Shown here piece after piece: positions 11,315-47,545 of a stretch of DNA of 64,000 bases. Source of the DNA: Ginglymostoma cirratum. Lineage: Eukaryota. The stretch's first letter is position 1. Each line of letters begins with the position of its first letter. A program made the translations under genes and the position numbers. Under the pieces are notes generated by a model. That model searched no databases. It had not been told where the DNA came from and worked only from the letters and a program-made list of their open reading frames with translations. The DNA is taken from positions 9,884,897 through 9,948,896 of the forward strand of contig JAHRHZ010000003.1 in the NCBI GenBank assembly GCA_024137785.1. Reading direction: 5' to 3'.

Positions 11315-11410
11315 CCAAGGGCGCTGAGAGCAGTGCTGTAAGGAACCAGTCAGGTGCTGGGCCTCAGGCCGAGGTGCTCCAGTCTGCTCACCCTCCGCCT
11401 CCTGTACTCT
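11315..11410 (+). CDS. CAMK2B: CaMKII-beta variable-linker cassette exon A (96 nt, phase 1-1): (A)KGAESSAVRNQSGAGPQAEVLQSAHPPPPVL
   Basis: Pyrimidine tract + cag|CC acceptor, T|gtaagt donor, open frame, length divisible by 3, same phase as the downstream hub exon; loosely similar to the betaM repeat (VRxxSG..PxxE..Pro-rich). Confidence 0.75.
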
Positions 11411-19168: not shown

Positions 19169-19294
19169 CTGCAAAGTTCACAGATGTCCTTAACAGTGTG
19201 CGGAGAGGGTCAGGACCCTTTCCTGAACACGAGGGGCTCCCGACTCCTGCTGCACAGCCTCCGCTGCCTTCTCTCACTTCCTCCTCTATGCCCA
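19169..19294 (+). CDS. CAMK2B: CaMKII-beta betaM-type proline-rich cassette exon B (126 nt, phase 1-1): (A)[41 protein letters not shown]
   Basis: tag|CT acceptor and A|gtaagt donor. The peptide matches the mammalian betaM repeat as recalled ([22 protein letters not shown]), which is diagnostic for the beta paralog. Confidence 0.92.
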
Positions 19295-20528: not shown

Positions 20529-20645
20529 CTGCGAAATTCACAGATGTTTTCAAGTGTGTGCCGCGACAGTTTGCACCTTTTGCTGAATCTGAGGGTGGCC
20601 AGTCTGTTCAGGTACCACCTCTCACTCCCTACATCTCTATCCCTT
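20529..20645 (+). CDS. CAMK2B: CaMKII-beta cassette exon C, a diverged duplicate of exon B (117 nt, phase 1-1): (x)AKFTDVFKCVPRQFAPFAESEGGQSVQVPPLTPYISIP
   Basis: cag|CTGCGAAATTCACAGATGT parallels exon B tag|CTGCAAAGTTCACAGATGT; T|gtaagt donor; open frame. It is not in the frame shown in the ORF track. Confidence 0.8.
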
Positions 20646-23600
20646 GTAAGTAGCAAGCAGTGCTTCCTGACTGAGATTCTGCCTTCTTTACAAGGCTGAA
20701 TGAATGCAATGCACTTTTCAGCATGTGGAAGGTGTGTGTCTTGCAAATTTAAAATGCAGAAAAGCTGACGGTGATATAAAACTGATGCTGGATATTAATT
20801 AAGGACATTAGTCTGTAATTAAGCTTCACTTGTAACTTGATTGTCAGATATTTCCAGACGACAATGAGTGTACAGTCCTTAAGGACGATGCAAGCAGTTT
20901 CAATACTGAGTTCAACTTCAGCTTTTAAACATAATGTGAGCCCAGTGCCAAGATAGAAACAGAAGGGTCTAATAGTACATTAAATTGACCAGGTACAAAA
21001 CACTGCTTCTTGAAAAATGCTTGATATATTTTCATTCTGAGATGATTAAGTCAGTAATATTTGAATGTAATAACTGCATTGCTATTTCCTGCCAATAACA
21101 ACTGGTCAGTAATAAATCCTGGTCCCTCGCTCTTGAATTAAATTTTCTGTCTGCTTTGAATGATCCGAGTTGAGAAGATTTCTAACAAATGAAAAATAGC
21201 TTCGTGCACAAATGTTTATGTTTCTATTCTCAACAAGGTGATTCGAAGCTTCAAGTTGCTGCTCCCAAACTCTTTGGCACTGTGATTCTGATGTATTTGT
21301 TGAGTGCGCCATGAGTTTGTGTGTTGAAATTCAGACACATTTGAATGCGTGCATAGATGTGGAAACCACACATTTTAAATTCAGAATTCTGTTATTTTTA
21401 AACTAAAGGTTATCTACTTGTAAAACTTGGAATCTGTTTTCCTACAGGCAGCATCACCAGTTCTTATAATCCAAAATCTTTGTGAGAAACTGATGAACTT
21501 GAATTCATAAGATTTCTTATTTTTGGGCTAAATTTGACATAAATTCATGACTAAACATTCTGTCTCTACTTGCAAAGTCATCCTGGGTCAGAGAGTCAGT
21601 GAAGGCAGCAGGTAACCTTCTGCCAGACCTCTGCCTCTGTGGGCCAGCCACAAACAGACGCAGGGGAATGGACTTAGAACAGACTGCCCAAGTCTACTCT
21701 TGTCTCATTATCTAATCTGCACCAGTGTACGTGAACACAAGTGACTGAACAAACATTGCAGTTGAATTTCAACCTGCTGTCTGTATGTCAGTTTTCATTC
21801 TTCCAACTGGGTCTTGCTTCAATTAAGCAGACTTAAGACATTTGTTTCATTTTGAGACTTTCCATCTTAATATGAGCTAGGAATGTTGAATGAGAAAACG
21901 CTGTGACTGAAGACGTACGTGCAAGTTGTTGTGGGGATTTGCCAGTAAGGGAAGCAGCTCATTTGTTCCTGACCACCTGTTCTGTCACAAAACCCTTTGA
22001 ATGTTTTCTTCCTAAAAATGAGTCATATTCTTTGAATATCCATCTAGTAATTGTGCATGTGTAAGTTTGAGCTGTTAGGATCAATGTCAAGAACATGCGA
22101 CTTGACACTGCTATCCAAAGTCGTAATCAACATTCATAAAGGAGCTTATCCACATAGGCAGAAATTATCAAGGGCCTGACTCTTCCCTGTTCATGTAAAA
22201 AGGATGGTGGGATATTTTATCCTCAAGATTGATTGTTCCATTGTTGCTGGGGGGTCAGATTTTCCTTTACGCCTCTTGACTTATCATTTGATTGATCAGC
22301 TTCCCCAGTGACTATGACAGGACTGAATGGCACTGTGGATAGCAGCACATAGTCCACTGAAACACAGTTGCTGGACTTAAACAAGCCACGTCATAGCAAA
22401 TTTGTTAGCTCCCGTGCTTCACATTCAGGCAGAATTCAGAACGTGCCCCCAGATCTGCTGTTCGCTTCATTGAATAGTAATTCTTTCCATGTTGTGCAGC
22501 TTTTAAAACTCATTCATCCTGATCTGCAAGAATGTTCAGATAATGCATGTAAGTTTCGTTTGTCTTCTTTTTTCTCCTAAAATATACAACATAGCAATGC
22601 TTCAGTAGTATCCTCATAACTGATTTACTTCACACCCTTACTGTTGGACTCATTGGAATTCATGAAATAGGACTGATGAATCTAATACTTGTCTGACTCT
22701 TCAAAGATAGAGCTCGACATTTTAAAGTTAGTAATTCTACAGAAAGCTCATTGTCAGGTGTATATATTTTGAAGACGTTAGGATACCCAACATGTTGTTG
22801 ACTGGATGTGTGATCACGCTTGCAGCCTGGAGAACATTATGAATTTAACAACTTATTCCAGCTAGTACTATTTCTGAAAGCAAACACTGGTGCCTGTGAT
22901 CACAGTGCTTATTATGTCATTGCAATTGAAATGAGAACTCCAACTAATTCCCAAGGAATATCTACTATTTTTTAAAATTAATAAATAATCAATTAAAGAA
23001 CAATAACAGTTCGAGTATTTTAAGATTGTAAAAGCTGTGCAAGTTTTTCCTCAGTGAGGATTTTAACATGACATGAATAACGCACAATCTCTGCACTTGA
23101 TTGTCTAACTGAAATGTGCAGCCCGTTTTAATACATCTAATCACTGCAACCATTGTTACTTGCCTTCTGTGTAAATAAAACTTCAATCACATGCTTGTGA
23201 GATGCTGAATTCTGTCTCAGCCACTGGCCCAGTGTCCTGTCAATTCTTCATTCAGCATCATCAGTGCAACTGCTGACTTCTGCTTTGAGTTCTTTCAGTT
23301 TGCTGTCATTGGCTGACCTATTTCACATTTCACGAAAAAGAATGCTTAGTTTTCAGCGTAACTGTATTTTTAACTGACCCAGAAGGATCATTTGGTGCGA
23401 CATAAGATCATTCTCTGAATTAGACTGTAATCCATGTGCATTAGCATGACAGTAGTATTTTTTTGGCCAATTTAATCTTGACTAATCCTGAAAGCCATAT
23501 TCTCTCTTGTTTAACTTTAGTGATTGCAACAATAATACGAATGTTCCTTTTGTAAAATAAATAGTAGTTTGGGGACTTTGATTGTGCACACTGCTGCTAA

Positions 23601-24250: not shown

Positions 24251-24769
24251 TCTTCTCCAGCTATAACTATAGAATCAGAAGAGTGTAAAATGCCAAAACT
24301 AAGTTCTGTGTTTTGGAAACCAAATTCTATTCCATTTAAAATGGAAATCATTTATATCCTTTTTGAGAATATGGCTTTAATGCATTTTTTGGATACTTAC
24401 CTATTCCGTCAATGTTTATCCATTTTTGCTTTTACTCTTGGATATTCCCTGTGTCTCTTTCACGTACGATGTACTTTTTTTCACAAACTCAGTTGCTAAA
24501 GGTATGGATCGTGTAAATGTTAAGAGTCAGCCCAATGATTACAAGAGACCCCTCAGCTCACCACCTCCAACTCAATGTAAGTGTTAGAGATATTGGTACC
24601 CAACTGTGTCTGAAGAATGGCTTTGCTTTACCATTCAAGTCATTAACATCAATGTAATTTTACTTCAGTATATGAATCTATTTTAATCTATTTTAAAGGA
24701 ATCTATTTTAACTGGACGCTTAAAATTTATGCATGGAAACTTCTGTTTGCCAAACTTGCTCGTCTTTGT

Positions 24770-31164: not shown

Positions 31165-31393
31165 ATATCAAAAACAAATTTGCTGGAAAACCTCAGCAGG
31201 TCTGGCAGCATCTGTGAAGGAAAAAACAGAGTTAACATTTCAGGGCCGGTGACCCTTCTTCAGAACTGTGTTCTGCAGAAGGGTCACCGGACCTGAAACA
31301 TCAACTCTGTTTTTTCCTTCACAGATGCTGCCAGACCTGCTGAGCTTTTCCAGCAAATTTGTTTTTGTTCCTGCAGTTCTTTCAGTTTTTATT
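31165..31393. mobile_element. Fold-back (palindromic) PLE-derived insertion with 12-bp TSD
   Basis: 31169-31266 is the near-perfect reverse complement of 31270-31367; TAATAAACTTAC at 31153-31164 and 31394-31405; degenerate CTGAAGA...GAAA cores. Confidence 0.85.
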
Positions 31394-32635
31394 TAATAAA
31401 CTTACGCATTGATATACCGCTGTGATGTGAGTTACGTTTTTCAAAGCAACTTTATTACGCTTGTGGCCAAATAAAGTTTTAGTTACTATGATGCCGAAGG
31501 GACCTGATTACTTTTTTCCTTGAATAAAATTGAACCAGGATGAAACAACCCAAAATTGATGAGGATTAATGAGCATCATCAATGTCACAGAGCATGGGCT
31601 AGAGATCTATTGACATGCAGGTTTGAGAGGGTGCCTAGCTTTATCCCATGAGCGAAGACAAAGATCACACCTATATTCTCATGCTGTCACTCAGACCGGG
31701 GAGGCCAAGTGTGCTCTGTCTCCTATGGAGCATTTCAATATGTGAGACACATAGAATTTCATCTGTTTCTGTTGTGACATTTTTAAAATCTTTCTGTCTG
31801 TGATTATTGAGCAGTGTCACGGCAGTGTATTCTGTTATCAACATTGTTTAGTATTTCAAAGATCTATTAATAAAATGATTCTGGGCTGAGTTTGGATACT
31901 CTAGAAATTTATCAGTGAAGAGCATTTAAGCATGTTGACTTCTGTTAGCCCGACCTTTGGCATGGTGTATAATTTCAGGGAAAATGAGTTTAAATGGTAA
32001 ATGTTTCCAGTCTTAAGGTAATGCCTGACTATTCAGGGGAAAGGATTGCAAAACTATGAGCAAGTCAAGTGACAAGACTTCATATAGTCTGGGATACTGT
32101 CTCTGACTTATTCACATTTTATTTTCTATTGCTTAGTTTTAAAATTCTCAGACCATCATTGGCATTGCATTTTTGTGTTGAAATGCAGTGTGTGACTGTT
32201 AAATACAGCAATTTCTGCACATTTTGCATTGTAACCTTATCAAATTAAAAATGCCTCACAGCAACCAACCCAATTTGGGTTTAATGCCAATAGCTGCTAT
32301 TTCAAGAGGCAGAGGTTTCAGGTGCCCTTCTTAAATAACAACAAAGCAGTTTATAGCTTAAAAGTGCAAGCACTACAAACATTAAGCAATTTCAACTAAA
32401 AGTTAGACACAGCCCATGATGCATCTTGTTCATGGATTCTGGGAACGTTGCTTGAAGTATTGTCTGTTGTCTGTTATACGTCTTGTCTTTTGCAAACAAG
32501 CAACTAGAAGGACATCACATCTCGGAGAGTCGCAAGTCTTATGTAATTACCGTACTTTCACGAAAACAACCTGCAGGGTATATCTTTTAAAACGTATTCC
32601 AGAGGCAATGTGGCTTATATTCGTGGGCGGGTTAT

Positions 32636-32684
32636 ATGTGCGACTTTTTTTGCAGATGGCTGGCCAACTTCGGTCTTCCTACAG
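32636..32684 (+). CDS. Candidate internal first coding exon of camk2b (MCDFFCRWLANFGLPT), phase-1 donor in frame with the hub exon
   Basis: ATG at 32636, ACAG|gtaaga donor, G|CT CGC AAG CAA GAA in-frame join to 33168; locally CpG-rich with GGGCGG at 32625-32630. No transcript evidence. Confidence 0.35.
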
Positions 32685-33167
32685 GTAAGAGGTAAGTCAT
32701 TGCAAAAGTGGAGATGGCTAACATTTTAAACTGTCTGTGTGAACAAGGGAACTAGCTGTCTTCGCATGTTTATGAATGGGTTTAAATCTTTATGTATGTG
32801 GATGAGAGGGTAGTTTTATCAGGTATTGTATAGGGCCATTTTGAGGCGGGATGGATTCATTGTGCGGGATTACACATTTTATTTTGTTCTCAGAAGCACA
32901 TTATAATAATGGTAATTAGGTTACAGCCCAGGTTTTTTTTCGTGAAATTACGGTAACAATCCAAAATACGAGTTTTAAGTTAATTGTAAAAGTTAGTGTA
33001 ACCAGCTAATCTAGCACCAATTTTATTTAGCTACGTAAGAAAGTGAATTACTCTAAATGGGAATTGATGCCATTAAGCAGGGGATCAAACTGCTAATTTT
33101 TTTGTCCCCAATTGTGATGACATTGGATGGTATCAGATGTCCCATTTTCTTCTTGTTTTTTTTCCAG

Positions 33168-33243
33168 CTCGCAAGCAAGAAATCATCAAGTTAACCGAGC
33201 AGCTGATTGAAGCCATTAACAATGGGGACTTTGAAGCTTATGC
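33168..33243 (+). CDS. CAMK2B: CaMKII-beta association (hub) domain exon 1 (76 nt): [26 protein letters not shown]
   Basis: ttccag|CT and GC|gtaagt junctions; near-identity to the CaMKII hub sequence. Confidence 0.98.
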
Positions 33244-33309
33244 GTAAGTGAAAAGATTACCTTTTTCATTCATGAACACTTGGTTACTGTTACCTCCCGA
33301 ACATCTCTC

Positions 33310-34070
33310 ATCTAGGGATATTGAAGGCAAGTGATATTCAAACCAAACGGGTGACAAGTGCCAGAAATTGAACCATCAACCCTTCACATTCAATGGTATG
33401 GCCATCACTGAATCACTCACTGTCAACATCCAGGGAGGTTGCCATTCAATTAAAAACTGAACTGGACTTCCTGTGTGAATACATTGGTGACAACAGCATG
33501 TCAGCGACTAGGAATCCTGTCACAAGTAACTCACTCCTGACCCTTCCCCCTCCTCCCACCCCACCAGAGCCTGTCCACTATTGACCAGGCATAAGTGAGA
33601 AGTGTAATGCGTGATTGAACAATCCCAGTTGCCCAGTTGAGTGCAGCTCCAAAAGTGCTTAAGAAGCTTGACACTCTCCAGGACAAAGCATCCCACTTAA
33701 TTGGCTCCACCTCCATCTTCTTTGCTTTTCATTCCCTTCATCACCAATGCCTCACAAAGGCTCCTTCCACAGCACCTTCCAAACCTACAACCTAAATGAG
33801 CCAGCAGGACCTAAGCAACAGATGCACGGGAACGGGATCAACTGCAAGTTCCTCTCTAAGCCATGCATCATCCTGACTTGCAACTATATCATTTTTCCCT
33901 TTACTATAGCTGGGTCAAAGGCTCGGAATTCCCTTCTTAACAACACGGAGGGCGTACCCATGCTCCAAGGACTGCAGCCAGTATCTCTCCATCACTTCTT
34001 GGAGTGCAGTTTGGGATGGGCAACAAGTGCTGGCATTGGTAGTGATGTCCACCTTCCAATAAGTTTTTGG
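33310..34070 (+). mobile_element. Shark LINE 3' end (CR1/L2-like)
   Basis: Contains cagcaccttccaaacc...ctgcaagttcctctctaagcc...cctgacttg, shared with 47690-48010; degraded RT-like remnants upstream. Confidence 0.55.
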
Positions 34071-34437
34071 GAAGTTAACATGTTAAAAGTTTCCATGTAA
34101 GTCAATGCCTGGATATTTTGAAAATGTGTTCCCATTTTGGATAGATTTCTGAAGTGTAACCTGAACAGTGGTGAGAGAATCCTTGTGAAGGCTTGAACTT
34201 GGTAGCCAAAATCTCATTCTAGTTTGTGTACTGATGTGCAGCAAAGGTTGTTGAGCTTTCACGTGGAAAGAAGTAACAAATGCATCCTTATGACTTCTGG
34301 GACCTGAGCAACCATTCTAAGCAAAGTTTTCCCTTATACCTTTCTCCTGAACAATTGTATTTAAGACCTCAGTGGGAACAACAGAGCACTTGTGGAATTT
34401 ATGATCCTCAGTTGTGTTTAGAAATTACATTTCCTGA

Positions 34438-34599
<162 letters not shown>

Positions 34600-35433: not shown

Positions 35434-35666
35434 TGTTATCTAAAAACAGCAAACCCATCCACACAACTATTTTGAATCCTCACGTACATCTGATTGGAGA
35501 CGATGCTGCCTGCATAGCATACATTCGCCTCACCCAGTATATAGACATTCAGGGTAGGCCACGAACAACCCAGTCAGAGGAGACACGGGTCTGGCACCGT
35601 CGGGACAGCAAATGGCAGAATGTTCACTTCCACTGCTCAGGTTCTCCAGCAGCACCACTCCAGTGA
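35434..35666 (+). CDS. CAMK2B: CaMKII-beta last coding exon: [27 protein letters not shown]...[11 protein letters not shown]
   Basis: tgcag|TG acceptor; stop TGA at 35664-35666; donor AG|gtatga after 35668. Confidence 0.98.
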
Positions 35667-35859
35667 AGGTATGATTTCAACATTGGAAATGAAGTGATGA
35701 TCCAATGAGAGAAAGGGCAAAGGAAGTAGTTTGTAATGAGTCAGCGTCAATTCAGCACGTTCTTAATTTTTTTTTTCATGACTTTGTGTATTGAATTTGT
35801 GTGAACCACTGAGCCACCATGCCTCTGTTTGAAACTTTGCAAGTACGCCAAACTTTGCA

Positions 35860-37040
35860 TAGTACAGTGAAGTCACAGACCCTCCTGGTGTCCTGGATGA
35901 TGTGTGCACAAAGTGTCACCAACTGCAGAAACTTGAGCTCTGGATTTCAGAGCTTGACTGGCAGCTGGAGACACTGTGGCACAGCCACAAGACTCACCAT
36001 TATGTGGATTGCACATTTAGAGAGGTGGTCACACTGTAGCTTAAGGGAAGGGGTGACCACCTGGCAGTCGGAAAGAAACAGGCAGGTAGTGCAGCAATCC
36101 CTTGGAGTCTGCTCTCAAACTGGTTTTCCATTTTGGAAGCTGGTGAGGACACTGGTTCCTCAAGTGATTGCAAACAGAGCTAAGCTTTTGGCATCGCAAG
36201 CAGCATGTCTGTACAGGAGGTGTGGAAGGAATGGCAATAGTAATAGGGGGTTCATCGGTTAGGAGGAACAGACAGGCATTTCTGTGGCCACAGAATGGCT
36301 GCAGGGCATCCTGAAGAGGGAGCATGATAAGTCAGAGGTCATGGCACATGTTGATACCAACGATATAGGTGGAATTAGGAATTCAGAAAGCTAGACAACA
36401 GGTTAACAAGCAAAATCTCAAAGGGTGTAATCTCTGGATTACTTAAAGTGCCACATGCGAACAAGTACAGAAATAAAAGAAAAAAGCAGGTGAATGTGTG
36501 GCTCAGGAGTTGGTGCAGGAAAAATGGTTTCAAATTCCTGCATTACTGGGACAGTGGTTGAGGTGGGACCTGGACAAGTGGGATGGTTTGTACGTGAATG
36601 AGAATGGAACTAACCTCCTTTTGGGAGGGTTTGCTCATGCTTTTGGGAAAAGTTTAAACTAGTTCGATGGGGGAAGGGACATACGGTGATCGTACAGCCA
36701 GGGGACAGTGTAGGTTAGGAAAGGAACCAAGACACAGGAAGTTCAGACATGTTGAGTTTGAAGGGAGTAAGGCAAGGTGGGATTGTCTGTAATGCTGGGA
36801 GTATTTTAGGTAAGTTATATGAGTTATGGGCACAGATTGACATGAGGAATTGTGAAATTGCTGTCATCACAGATGTAAATTAAGGGAGGGGAAGGACTAG
36901 CAACTCAACATTCTGGGATATGTGATCTTCAGGCAGGACACGGGTGGGGGAGGGAGAGATTAAAGAGGTGGTGATGCTGCACTCCTAATTCAGGAATCAG
37001 TTAGTGCATTAATGGTGGACATCAGCTTGGAAAGGGCCTT
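35860..37040 (+). mobile_element. Degraded CR1 LINE 5' portion (ORF1 zinc-finger/coiled-coil/esterase plus start of the ORF2 endonuclease)
   Basis: CTKCHQLQKLELWISELDWQLETL, VMAHVDTNDIG (esterase VHIGTND motif), then NAGSILGKLYELWAQI..IAVIT (endonuclease start); multiple stops. Confidence 0.75.
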
Positions 37041-37276
37041 TAACGTGCTGTGCATTAAACAACACAGAAAGAAGACCAGAAAATTTGTTCTTCATTCACA
37101 TTCTGTTTAGTGTCAGTCTGAAAAGAGGCTGTTGGACATGAACAGGTCACACGTCCAGTTAGCTCTCATTATGCTTTCACCATGTTCTTGCTGTTTAATC
37201 AAGCCCCAAGTGAACTTGCTTATCATCCATAAAATTCAAGAATCTGCTTATAATATATTTGAATCTTTCTCTGCAG

Positions 37277-39145
37277 AACTGAAGAAGTTGGCAGAATTCT
37301 GGCCCAAGCAAACATTCAAGCTGAGCCGCGACCTGGTGGCCTCTGAAGACCAGCAGTAACATGCACGTGTCCGCATGCACATTATGCTCCTGGTGGCTGC
37401 ATAATTGTCACGTTCGTGGAACTATATGGTGTTTCTTTCAACTGTCTCAAGATGTAGACATTAACTTAAAAAAAACAAAAAAAACTTACAAAATCAAAAA
37501 TGGCTACTGTATATGTACTTTATATAATTCACATTTGATGGCAGTGATTTGTACAATTCATTCAAAACATTTGCCAAAGCATGAAGGGTAAAATTTAATG
37601 GTGATCATCCTAATGTTGGAGGGTTAGTGTTCCATTTTATATTTTCTTGTACACTAAAGATGTGTCACTTATTCTTTTGGGAACTTAGGTCTGACATCCT
37701 TACACTTGACTCAGTGAAACTGTACATGAGGCCCCATCACAGCCACTGGTACTTCTGGATGGTATTAAGGCAGAAGGCAGTCAATCAAATTAAGGAACCA
37801 ACACAATGCCAAAAAGGCATCACAAGCAATTTTTAAAATGTGGAAAATATTATTTCTGAAACAGTCTTCTGCCATCAACAAATTGTCACACAAGGTTGCT
37901 TCAAGTATATGAACAAACACAGCGACCTGATTTTTCATTTCTTACACTTTATGTATGCTGTATTGGAGGAAGAAAGGTAGCTATGTTCATCGATTTTTCT
38001 TCTGTTCCATGTGAAATGTATTGGTTTGATAGAACAACCGTCAAAGAAAAAGTTAATTTAAGAGGTAACAGGTACATCACTTGAAATAGCAGTAATGTGA
38101 GAAAATTGACAAGGCTCGGGCGAATACCTCCCTGGTTCTGTTCTTTTGAAAAATGAGTGAGTTAACTATAGAAGTAGCCAGATCTAATTTGGTGTTCTTT
38201 ACTGTTTTGTTATACTGTGCTACCAACTCTAGGATTTAAAGAAAAACCTGTTGCCATCAGTTAAAATTGTATATGCATTTTTACAAATGCACGTTATATA
38301 TTTATAGCCGATAATTTTTGTGTTTAACTTGCCATGGGTTCAGATGATGTACTGAGCTTTATTGTTTTCAAATTACAGAGTCTTGAATGCGTGTAGTGAT
38401 ACAATCTGATGTCTGAGATCAGCCTGCCTGGAAGGCCTCTCAGAAGGGCATGATCACTTTGTGGTTTCTTTGTTAAACTTGTGTAGAAAATAGCTTATTA
38501 AAATAGCCAAAAAAAAGTTCTTTTGCATGACATAATTAACCCTGTTGGTTTAAAAAAAAGTTGCCCGTAGAGCTCTACATTTCTCTTACCTTCTCCTTTA
38601 TGAGCTTTGTAACAGCATAAAACCTTTTTTGTCTGCTGTGTGTAATGAAAACCTGGTTTGCATGCACTTGATCAACTGCTTAACAATTTTGTGCAGGGGC
38701 TGTGGAAACGCATTGAGAGGACTCCTCTTATCGTGTTTTTATGGATGTTTTAAATTAGACAGCTTAGGGATCTTAAGTGTAATGAGCTGTGTGTGGATTT
38801 TTTTTATTTTTTTTTACAAGGGCTGTGGAACCTATGAATTAAACAAATGAGTTTTACCTCATTTAATGCCTCGCGTGGCTTGAAGTGTGGAAGTGCTGAT
38901 TTTGCTGGAGATATTTTTACGGTTGAAAATGATGGACTATATTTGCTTTTTACACAGCAACTTGCCTGAATATGAAATGTGATTTTTTTTTTTAATTATT
39001 CAAGTTCTCTGCAGCTGAAATTCTGTCAGGTCTGGTTTATATGAGGACAAAAAAAACAATATGTTACAGGATGTGGTCTATGTGTTCCTCTTACCATTTA
39101 AAATTGTTGATATGTCAGAAATAAACTTGACAATATGAATAGTGT
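37277..39145 (+). other. CAMK2B: camk2b non-coding terminal exon (3' UTR)
   Basis: ctttctctgcag| acceptor at 37276/37277 to pair with the donor at 35668; AT-rich, repeat-free UTR-like sequence; AATAAA at 39120-39125. The end position is inferred. Confidence 0.65.
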
Positions 39146-44779: not shown

Positions 44780-45660
44780 GAGATGGCAGCTCATCATCCA
44801 ACTGTTCCTCACTGTTCCTGATTTCTCTCTGTACCCTTTGATCCGCTTAATCTGAAGAACTGTATCCAACTCCTTTGGCCTCAAACATTTTCTGTGGCAA
44901 GAAATTCATCATTTTCTGGGTGAAGGTACCTCACCTCATCTCAGTTTTAAATGATCATTAGACTGTGACCCCTGGTTCTGGACCACGCACTTATTGGGAA
45001 CATCCTTCCTGCATTTACCCTGTCAAGTCATGTTCGAATTTTGTAGGTCTCTGAGATCGCTGTTCCTCCTGGCACGGCCAATTTTCTAAACGCCAGTGAA
45101 CATAATCCTAACCGATCCACTCTCTCTTCAGTATGTGCGTCCTGCCATCCCTGGAATCAATCTGGTAAACTCTGTCACTCTACCCCCACAGCAACAATAT
45201 CCTTCCTCAGATAAGGAGGCCAAAAGTCTGCACAATACTCCAGATGTGGTCTCACTAAGGACCTGTACCAGCTGGGGTACAAAATTCCAAAGACTATCAA
45301 CCTTCTGAGAGAAGGAATTCCTTCTATTCTCTATCTGAAGTGAAAAAAGCCCTTAAATCTGTGTGGCAATTCAAGATTCTGTTGAAAGTTTCCTCTCGGC
45401 ACTTCACCAGTGAAGTCCCCTCAGAATCTGAGGTATTTCAATAAAATCACCTTTCAATGTTCTAAATTCTACTAAACTTCAGCCTAACAACCTCAACATT
45501 CCTCATAAGACAAGCTCTTTATCCCAAATCGTTCTCCATACTGCTTCCAATGCAAGTATATCTCTCTTAGAGAGAGCAAAACTCTTCACAATTCTCTGGA
45601 ATGTGGTGTCTATACAGTTACAGAAAGGTGTCTCTATTTTTAAGCACCAACATCTTTGTT
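44780..45660 (-). mobile_element. Nested degraded CR1 fragments
   Basis: Reverse complements of CR1 RT motifs (LVRPHLEYC-like at ~45230-45260) and tail. Confidence 0.65.
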
Positions 45661-45891
45661 GTGAAGGACATCATTTCATTTGCCTCACGTCCCGGTGGAC
45701 TTGGAGCTACGCTCTTCCTTCTGACACGCATGCAGGTACAAACTGTTGTCTATCTTTATATTTTTCTCACCTGGGTGCCTTACTCCTAAAGTCCCAACAT
45801 ACCACCGTTTTATCCCCTTTCTACTTGCGGACTTGACAAGCACCATAGAACTGAAACGGCGCAGGAGGAGTCCGGTCTGCCCATCATGTCT

Positions 45892-46114
45892 AAGATAACA
45901 AGCATGGGGCCGGATGAACACAGCAGGTCAAGCAGCATCATAGGAGCAGGAAAACTTGACGTTTCGGGCCTAAACCCTTCATCAGAAATGGGGGAGGGGA
46001 AGAGGGTTCTGAAATAAATAGGGAGAGAGGGGGAGGCGGATAGAGGATGGATAGAGGAGAGGATAGGTGGAGAGGAGGCAGACAAGTCGAAGAGGCGGGG
46101 ATGGAGCCAGTAAA
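45892..46114 (-). mobile_element. Young Penelope-like terminal-repeat insertion just upstream of MRPS24
   Basis: 45893-46018 is almost identical to 653-777; an imperfect 18-bp flanking direct repeat lies at 45874-45891 and 46115-46132. Confidence 0.8.
45954..45989 (-). ncRNA. Minimal hammerhead ribozyme motif (PLE-associated)
   Basis: Minus strand attt-CTGATGA-agggtttaggccc-GAAA-cGTC-aagt. Confidence 0.65.
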
Positions 46115-46144
46115 GGTCTGTCCACCATGTCTGTTCTAGTTACC

Positions 46145-46830
46145 TTCGCCAAATTAGTCGCGCAGACCCTTTTTTTTTTGCTGGGGAGGGGCAGACAAGA
46201 CTGATGCTCAGCTACTGGCTAGAAGTCCGAAAAGAAAAAGTCAGCGATTGGCCGTTCGGAGGGTGCGCTGCTCCATGGGCCGGCTCAGGAGAGGACGCCG
46301 AAAACGCCGCACCCTCCCACCAGCTCCGACATCTTTTGCTCCTCCGTCTCGCCCCGTTACACCGACCACTGCGCCTGCGCAGTTGCTCACGCGCCTGACA
46401 ATCGCGCGCAGCGACCGTTAAGGAGGTCGCTGAAGTCCTGCTACGTGTCGGGCTTGCTTTATCATTTTTATTTCCCCTAATATATTGACTGCAGATATAT
46501 ATATATATATAGGAACGTTAAAAACGGAGAGGCCGCTAACTGTCTTTCCAATCACGAAGCCCCACCATCCTGTGCGAATGTAACATGGCGGCGCTCGTCT
46601 GCCGGAAGCTGTCGGTAAAGTCAAACACACAGTATATTCACAGTTTCTGCTTAGGCGTTTCATCGTTATTCTCGCTGGCCGAGAGCATTCGCGTGTGCTC
46701 GGCCCCGCTTCGGACTCCCGGCGGGTTACTTTGGGTCAGAAAGGAATCCAGGGTCTCCCCGAGTACGATTTACCACCTGCATCATGGCGCAAAACCAGGC
46801 GGGCGGCTTTTCAGACCGTTGCAGAACAGG
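46145..46830. promoter_or_regulatory. CpG-island promoter of MRPS24, probably bidirectional
   Basis: The only strongly CpG-dense segment in the window. NRF1-like TGCGCCTGCGCA 46370-46381, (AT)n ~46495-46511, CCAAT 46548-46552, YY1-like AACATGGCGGC over the ATG, ETS/GABP CCGGAAG 46602-46608. Confidence 0.8.
46585..46614 (+). CDS. MRPS24: Mitochondrial ribosomal protein S24 (uS3m), exon 1: MAALVCRKLS
   Basis: Strong Kozak aacATGG, TCG|gtaaag donor, similar to human MAASVCS. Confidence 0.85.
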
Positions 46831-46834
46831 AAGT

Positions 46835-47545
46835 AACTAAGGGATATTCTTCGACTAGGTGAATGGGTAAAACTGTATTAGATGGAGATCCCTGCAAGCA
46901 AATGTGAGATTCTGCGTTTTGGACCAAAAGTGGTTAAATCTGGGTCCTTTACACATAATCCCTGCTGTGGATCAATGTCCAGTGACCCCGAAGCAAATTA
47001 GCTAGAGTTTACCATAAAGATTTGAGCTGCGAGGTGCATTGGGCATTAAAATTTCCCGACCAGATACAGGAAATAATTAAGGTGACTTATGGTATGCTGG
47101 CTTTTGTATGTAGTGGACTGGAGTACAAGCACGCAGAAGTTATGCTGGTTAGACGCTGCTTGCGGCACTTACTAAGAGGTGATCTGATTGAAATCTTTGT
47201 ACTGTTTGCAGGAAAAGACGGGTAGCTAATGGTAAAATATTTGCACAGTTTGGAGATTCTGGAAGTACAGGCAATACTTGTAAGAATTAAGACCAGACCA
47301 TTGGGAGAGATGTTAGGAAGCACTTGTACACAACGGATGATAGAGGTTTGGAACTTGGTTCCTCAAGTGGCTTGGATACCAGATCAGTTGTTAACTTTAA
47401 ATCTGGGATTGGTAACCGAGTTTATCAAAGTTTAAGGAAATGGGCCAAAGACAAGTCTATGGAGTTCAGCCATGATCTCATTGAATGGTTTGAACAGGAG
47501 GGAGGGGCTGAATGCCCTACTCCTATTCCTTTTCCTATTCCTATA
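46835..47545 (+). mobile_element. Degraded CR1 LINE 3' region in MRPS24 intron 1
   Basis: GMLAFVCSGLEYK..LRGDLIEIF..TQRMIEVWN remnants and a cctattcct tail. Confidence 0.7.

Follow-up and report, generated by a model that had tools for sequence, protein, structure and literature searches.

AlphaKAP carries a long hydrophobic N-terminal membrane anchor and keeps linker exons. It is a kinase-less hub which is able to join holoenzymes (PMC9913510). In the beta gene, CAMK2B, the alternative exons v7a-c (betaM, beta3) are in-frame and located between exon v6 and the first hub exon (h1). Linker length has been reported to affect Ca2+/CaM sensitivity, frequency response and substrate selectivity, and exon v3N has been reported in shark beta (PMC5882894). 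Regulation of microexons, taken there at 6-27 nt, has been described as largely encoded in flanking introns, with UGC between the branch point and the AG (bioRxiv 2024.09.17.613571). Hybrid first-internal exons, finally, mostly resemble internal exons with strong acceptors (PMC11797052).

The window analysed here is a stretch of 64,000 nucleotides (G000:C3:9884897-9948896) within a 4.36-Gb genome, and the features described below lie on its + strand. Its last coding exon has the CaMKII-beta hub 7urw as best PDB match, is identical to Stegostoma and Rhincodon CAMK2B isoforms and has top database matches mostly named beta. On the basis of this beta-closest hub and of the identity to the Stegostoma and Rhincodon isoforms, the gene is therefore the shark CAMK2B, as the preliminary description of this DNA had assumed, and betaM-type exons were mapped between v6 and h1. 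CAMK2A (alpha) and a delta-like paralogue sit on separate contigs of the same genome. Exon v6 is located ~470 bases upstream of the window start. Within the window, an alternative linker exon (AKGAESS..., 11315-11410) precedes two betaM-like alternative exons, the first of which is proline-rich (19169-19294 and 20529-20645; exon mapping and database isoforms), and a third alternative exon of the betaM region (24493-24576). The hub is encoded by h1 (RKQE..., 33168-33243; mapping and an RNA joint from 33243 to 34470), h2 (34470-34564) and h3 (35434-35668), the latter two delimited by RNA joints; h3 contains the stop codon and is followed by a 3' UTR exon near 37277. The 3' UTR intron (35668-37277), confirmed by reads, starts right after the stop codon. 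A candidate exon at 22429-22548 was discarded, as it is absent from the linker inserts of the database isoforms examined. Further shark CAMK2B linker exons besides AKGAESS... are RSVT... and the NLS exon v3N, at L004:5058-5120 and L003:8820-8852.

Directly upstream of the hub, we identified a 36-nt exon (32656-32691) in phase 1-1, which adds 12 residues (D or Y followed by GWPTSVFLQVR) right before h1 in database isoforms. By tblastn, the proteins P0136 and P0243 both map to 32658-32690 with 100% identity. It is very probable that this element is a regulated cassette exon of shark and ray CAMK2B, by which full-length CaMKII-beta gains 12 residues where the variable linker meets the hub. Inclusion would lengthen the linker directly before the hub and, in the tissues where it is switched on, likely tune either the length of the linker or binding next to the hub; by analogy with known linker variants, the insert could alter calmodulin sensitivity or frequency response. 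The preliminary description had located a functional CAMK2B exon here, which holds, but had read it as an alphaKAP-like first exon, a kind of exon which is wrong or at least unproven: the supported use is that of an internal cassette, in another frame and with another donor, in 14 elasmobranchs. An AlphaFold model of the cassette isoform (22 near-identical sequences) was uninformative, with a mean pLDDT of 34.

The cassette is already present in predicted database isoforms. In a search targeted to the insert, GWPTSVFLQVR stands directly before RKQE and the hub in 57 of the 120 listed proteins, from 14 elasmobranch species (5 sharks and 9 batoids), and cluster members add nine carriers, giving 66 of the 441 retrieved proteins. 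With some names completed, the carriers belong to Stegostoma, Chiloscyllium punctatum, Scyliorhinus canicula, Heptranchias, Pristiophorus, Pristis, two Mobula, Hypanus, Hemitrygon, Narcine, Amblyraja, Leucoraja and Rhinoraja. The carriers are all predictions, namely RefSeq XP models with the corresponding UniRef entries, a class of model generally built on RNA-seq junctions. The 11 whole residues are identical in every carrier; at the junction, D follows v6 (42 proteins) and Y follows two other exons (24 proteins), as phase-1 splicing predicts. In these models, the cassette follows three different upstream exons, one of them AKGAESS...; the exon at 24493-24576 is joined to it in two Mobula birostris models. 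Other alternative linker exons nearby differ between species, unlike the cassette peptide.

Skipping is the majority form: 118 of 120 long hub relatives lack the cassette, the exact insert being carried by two RefSeq isoforms (XP_048378866.2 and XP_072410184.1). In Pristis, the cassette is found in most of the isoforms seen, and it was not seen in the retrieved isoforms of Carcharodon, Cetorhinus, Mustelus, Hemiscyllium and Rhincodon. The Carcharodon isoform X49 (P0214) has a different short insert before the hub, which ends in VLPYR. In the insert search, scores fall from 70 bits directly to 53 bits, and this drop without diverged intermediates indicates that the 7,992 scored candidates contain no bony-fish or chimaera version; the 120 best of them include no bony-vertebrate match, in a crowded and annotation-dependent search. 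From the sequences retrieved, the cassette appears to be limited to sharks and rays. The genome search found no second copy of the element in this shark's own genome; neither 80 kb of CAMK2A nor 40 kb of the delta-like paralogue contained a credible match, a gamma gene not having been located, and a degenerate cassette pattern gave 0 matches in metagenome contigs. A literature search from which subscription papers were largely missing found no paper on the cassette exon or on a kinase-less CAMK2B product. The exon thus adds to known CaMKII linker splicing and extends the CaMKII-beta splice inventory.

Like v7a-c, the cassette is an alternative in-frame exon between v6 and h1, but it is not among the mammalian exons described in the available text of PMC5882894, measures 36 nt, is not proline-rich, is invariant in 14 elasmobranchs and possesses tandem donors. 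It also resembles SRRM3/4 neural microexons, being short and frame-preserving, with conserved flanks and TGC between the likely branch point and the AG; unlike them, its 36 nt exceed the 6-27 nt range, and TGC is a common triplet.

The conserved region is centred on the cassette exon and comprises, in alignments with contigs from runs X6 and X5 of two other organisms, a core of the exon with ~110 nt of upstream and ~30 nt of downstream intron (32544-32721). The X6 contig (organism C) has 0 differences over 32570-32721 (152 bases), compared with 14 differences and a 4-base gap over 32722-32844 (123 bases) and 7 differences out of 77 positions in h1. For X5 (organism B), 32544-32721 is free of listed differences, the listing omitting up to 3 of its 27 differences. 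Fisher tests of the core against neighbouring sequence gave p values of 3.5e-6 and 4e-4 for contigs picked up through shared words and hence selected for similarity. The core also preserves both donors and ATG 32636, the start codon of the leader proposed in the preliminary description; conservation of this ATG and of its frame had been suggested as a check, and both are unchanged in X6 and, among the differences listed, in X5. Such conserved flanks fit regulated short exons, by analogy, and would represent binding sites for splicing factors, possibly of the SRRM3/4-type UGC design. Invariance of the peptide, in turn, suggests a sequence-specific or RNA-level constraint. An invariant peptide across sharks and rays, with drifting neighbour exons and a position against the hub, points to a specific role.

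The acceptor of the cassette, its AG-free zone and donor 2 are canonical. The 3' splice-site region (32604-32655) contains an AG-free zone, a branch-point-like CTTAT at 32614, TGC at -17 and -5, a T8 tract and a CAG acceptor (32653-32655, cleavage at 32655|32656), the next AG upstream being found only beyond 32604; the branch point and the role of UGC are assigned from consensus only and are thus putative. On the other side, donor 2 (GAG|GTAAGT, 32692-32697) is needed by the annotated cassette, whose peptide ends in QVR in 66 of 66 carrying proteins, and splicing from the acceptor to donor 2 keeps the frame. Neither the acceptor nor donor 2 was noticed in the preliminary description, which also missed an out-of-frame upstream ATG at 32608. 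The T-run which encodes 'DFFC' in the proposed leader is the pyrimidine tract of the acceptor, and most of this leader would be that tract read in the other frame.

Seven nucleotides upstream of donor 2 lies a putative donor 1 (CAG|GTAAGA, 32685-32690), which equals donor 2 in its match to consensus and is conserved in X6 and, as far as differences are listed, in X5. In silico, pairing the acceptor with donor 1 leaves an exon of 29 nt which shifts the frame; a stop is then met 9 codons inside h1, upstream of three junctions. ATG 32636 combined with donor 1 gives an in-frame hub product. Since donor 1 is equally strong and its 29-nt exon leads to an early stop, the exon may be a three-way switch, to skip, insert or destroy; use of donor 1 would be predicted to cause nonsense-mediated decay. 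The element could even have a mainly regulatory role, donor 1 generating a 29-nt poison exon (leading to decay or to a monomeric kinase devoid of hub), with the in-frame form as a by-product. This possibility is consistent with the two equally good donors, with the early stop in h1 upstream of three junctions and with the invariance of the core at the DNA level, which exceeds that of the coding hub exon. We nevertheless regard it as unlikely: 14 species have the in-frame form in their annotation, in Pristis in most of the isoforms seen, and no 29-nt product was seen, in a protein search hardly able to show one because a product predicted to cause decay would be missing from protein databases.

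Both forms are represented, the included one in database models and the skipped one in models and in reads. The one usable raw RNA run of this organism (X20, of which 24% was read) is shallow and was analysed with a threshold of three reads per joint; a further run, X21, yielded 1 read, and runs X3 and X7-X14 were left out of the evidence. In X20, eight reads join v6 directly to h1, skipping the cassette, and no joint into 32656 or out of 32691 is found among the listed joints of this organism's runs. The joint tally corresponds to the listed joints, 19 more being unlisted, and the first read mapping was dominated by a repeat at 31180-31370. This repeat is an expressed, high-copy, SINE-like element with inverted halves. 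Contigs of X1, X2, X5 and X6 pass unspliced through the cassette exon, and X20 shows an unspliced coverage of the element of ~4-5 reads, versus ~9.5 on h1, which extends upstream to 32050. Depth reaches 3.85 in 32448-33081, compared with 1.9 in the adjoining upstream bin and 0-0.9 in intron bins before 23.5 kb. This unspliced coverage fits slow splicing around a regulated exon and, equally, a weak promoter. Against the cassette reading stand the predicted nature of the models, the lack of inclusion joints listed from this organism and a CpG excess with a GC box, which are left over.

These leftover signals were at the centre of the preliminary description, and every feature listed there was confirmed in the sequence. 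ATG 32636 opens a frame which translates to MCDFFCRWLANFGLPT, and the candidate coding first exon (32636-32684), whose 16-residue leader overlaps the acceptor tract, ends at donor 1 in phase with the hub: in silico splicing to 33168 and to the two later hub exons gives a protein of exactly 150 aa. The GC box (GGGCGG, 32625-32630) is one of only two in the window, and CpG is locally enriched (32520-33040, no strand assigned), with 16 CpG (o/e 0.88, GC 38%) versus ~5.6 expected and 3-9 around 14 other exons of the gene. For this interval, which was chosen after the fact, the Poisson p value is 2.4e-4, or ~0.016 over 69 tiles, and the excess is real but modest. The MEF2-type decamer at 31864 is present as described, but the window contains 4 to 8 instances of its pattern and it was rejected as a chance match. 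The weak start context of ATG 32636 was recognised from the outset, and the out-of-frame ATG 32608 adds to it. An in-frame phase-1 ATG precedes AG|GTRAG at 14 of 73 sites in 448 kb (both strands), and its occurrence here is within chance. As for the leader itself, its amphipathic character is borne out by a hydrophobic moment of 0.60, but its shortness and polarity do not suit a transmembrane anchor, its best 15-residue hydropathy being 0.69; a long hydrophobic N-terminal anchor is thus not found.

The cassette alone leaves without explanation a second strong donor fitting the ATG frame, the CpG and GC-box signal and the amphipathic leader pattern. These features could reflect a dual use of the exon, as a cassette and as a first exon, with a weak internal promoter at ~32.55-32.63 kb, ATG 32636 and donor 1 producing a 150-aa kinase-less hub whose amphipathic leader is possibly S-acylated, each donor serving one frame. 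We consider this possible but doubtful; being additional to the cassette, it does not compete with it for likelihood, and the likelihoods given to the different readings do not sum to one. Donor 1, no weaker than donor 2 by consensus, keeps the frame only when paired with ATG 32636, and the strict tandem-donor pattern occurs only 2 times in 448 kb. The CpG count of the element tops 104 kb outside the 45.5-47 kb island, which holds the only other GC box, but flanking CpGs (32531, 32763 and 32847) are lost in organism B. The hydrophobic moment is reached by 1.4% of shuffles (a post hoc test), whereas the hydropathy value argues against a transmembrane segment. While the ATG and its frame are unchanged in X6 and X5, chance in-frame ATGs are frequent at donor-like sites, the start context is weak and ATG 32608 is out of frame. 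Contigs begin at 32554 (X2) and 32570 (X6), although contigs cannot show starts, and the raised depth of X20 over 32448-33081 relative to upstream intron bins is set against the fact that X1, X4 and X20 also cover DNA upstream of 32550, with intron pieces throughout the 3' part of the gene. The two observations which had been put forward as checks were not obtained: at the three-read threshold, X20 contains no joint from 32684 to 33168, its eight reads into 33168 coming from the usual upstream exon, and in this shallow run there is no pile-up of molecule starts near 32.5-32.6 kb. At the protein level, the MCDFF leader is present in 0 of the 441 retrieved proteins and in none of the 120 listed of 159 hub proteins of 48-154 aa, no elasmobranch entry being among those listed; its 34-aa frame had 0 matches at E 0.001 against 1.84 billion representatives, a weak test with such a short query. 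Hybrid first-internal exons are common in humans and, in the available text of PMC11797052, start at the 3' splice site, whereas dual use in the shark would require transcription to begin 20 nt or more before the acceptor.

The hypothetical 150-aa product would be, like alphaKAP, a kinase-less hub which could join holoenzymes. It differs by its 16-aa amphipathic stretch, in place of a long hydrophobic one, and by splicing straight to h1, whereas alphaKAP retains linker exons. One could envisage, with little confidence, that a conserved stretch read in two frames through donors 7 nt apart constitutes an independently evolved shark and ray 'betaKAP' with a cysteine-bearing amphipathic anchor. 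Were the upstream donor in use as well, a single element would decide between a longer kinase, message decay and a kinase-less anchoring subunit, and would illustrate a route from an existing exon to alphaKAP-like proteins. An alphaKAP-like first exon alone, with no internal use, agrees with the frame, donor, CpG and GC box of the preliminary description, but is highly improbable: internal use together with upstream kinase exons is annotated in 14 species and contradicts it unless all models are wrong. The alphaKAP-like reading is unsupported by transcripts or proteins here, these negatives being soft, as sequencing depth is low, protein searches rely on cluster representatives whose clusters mix lengths and hide members, and isoform numbers of several database genes reach X49 or X50, possibly an annotation ceiling.

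In CAMK2A of the same genome, no clear alphaKAP-type exon with a strong donor was found, and 14 candidates retrieved with loose criteria in 12.8 kb were taken as chance; judging from its sequence, this shark may lack alphaKAP. Between r2 and v6 of CAMK2A (L006-L013, G000:C289), no v3N-type exon was detected by motif, and CpG-rich intron patches are repeat-like. A 140-aa CAMK2B entry of Rhinolophus ferrumequinum (KAF6301513.1, P0419) has an N-terminus of 6-7 residues before RKQ. This annotated hub-only beta form is unrelated in sequence to the shark leader and could represent either a genuine short transcript or an incomplete model. Further downstream in the window, positions 45500-47250 hold a true CpG island (46 CpG in 46251-46750), together with a GC box (46801) and a stretch opened by an ATG; this region is likely the promoter of the next gene.
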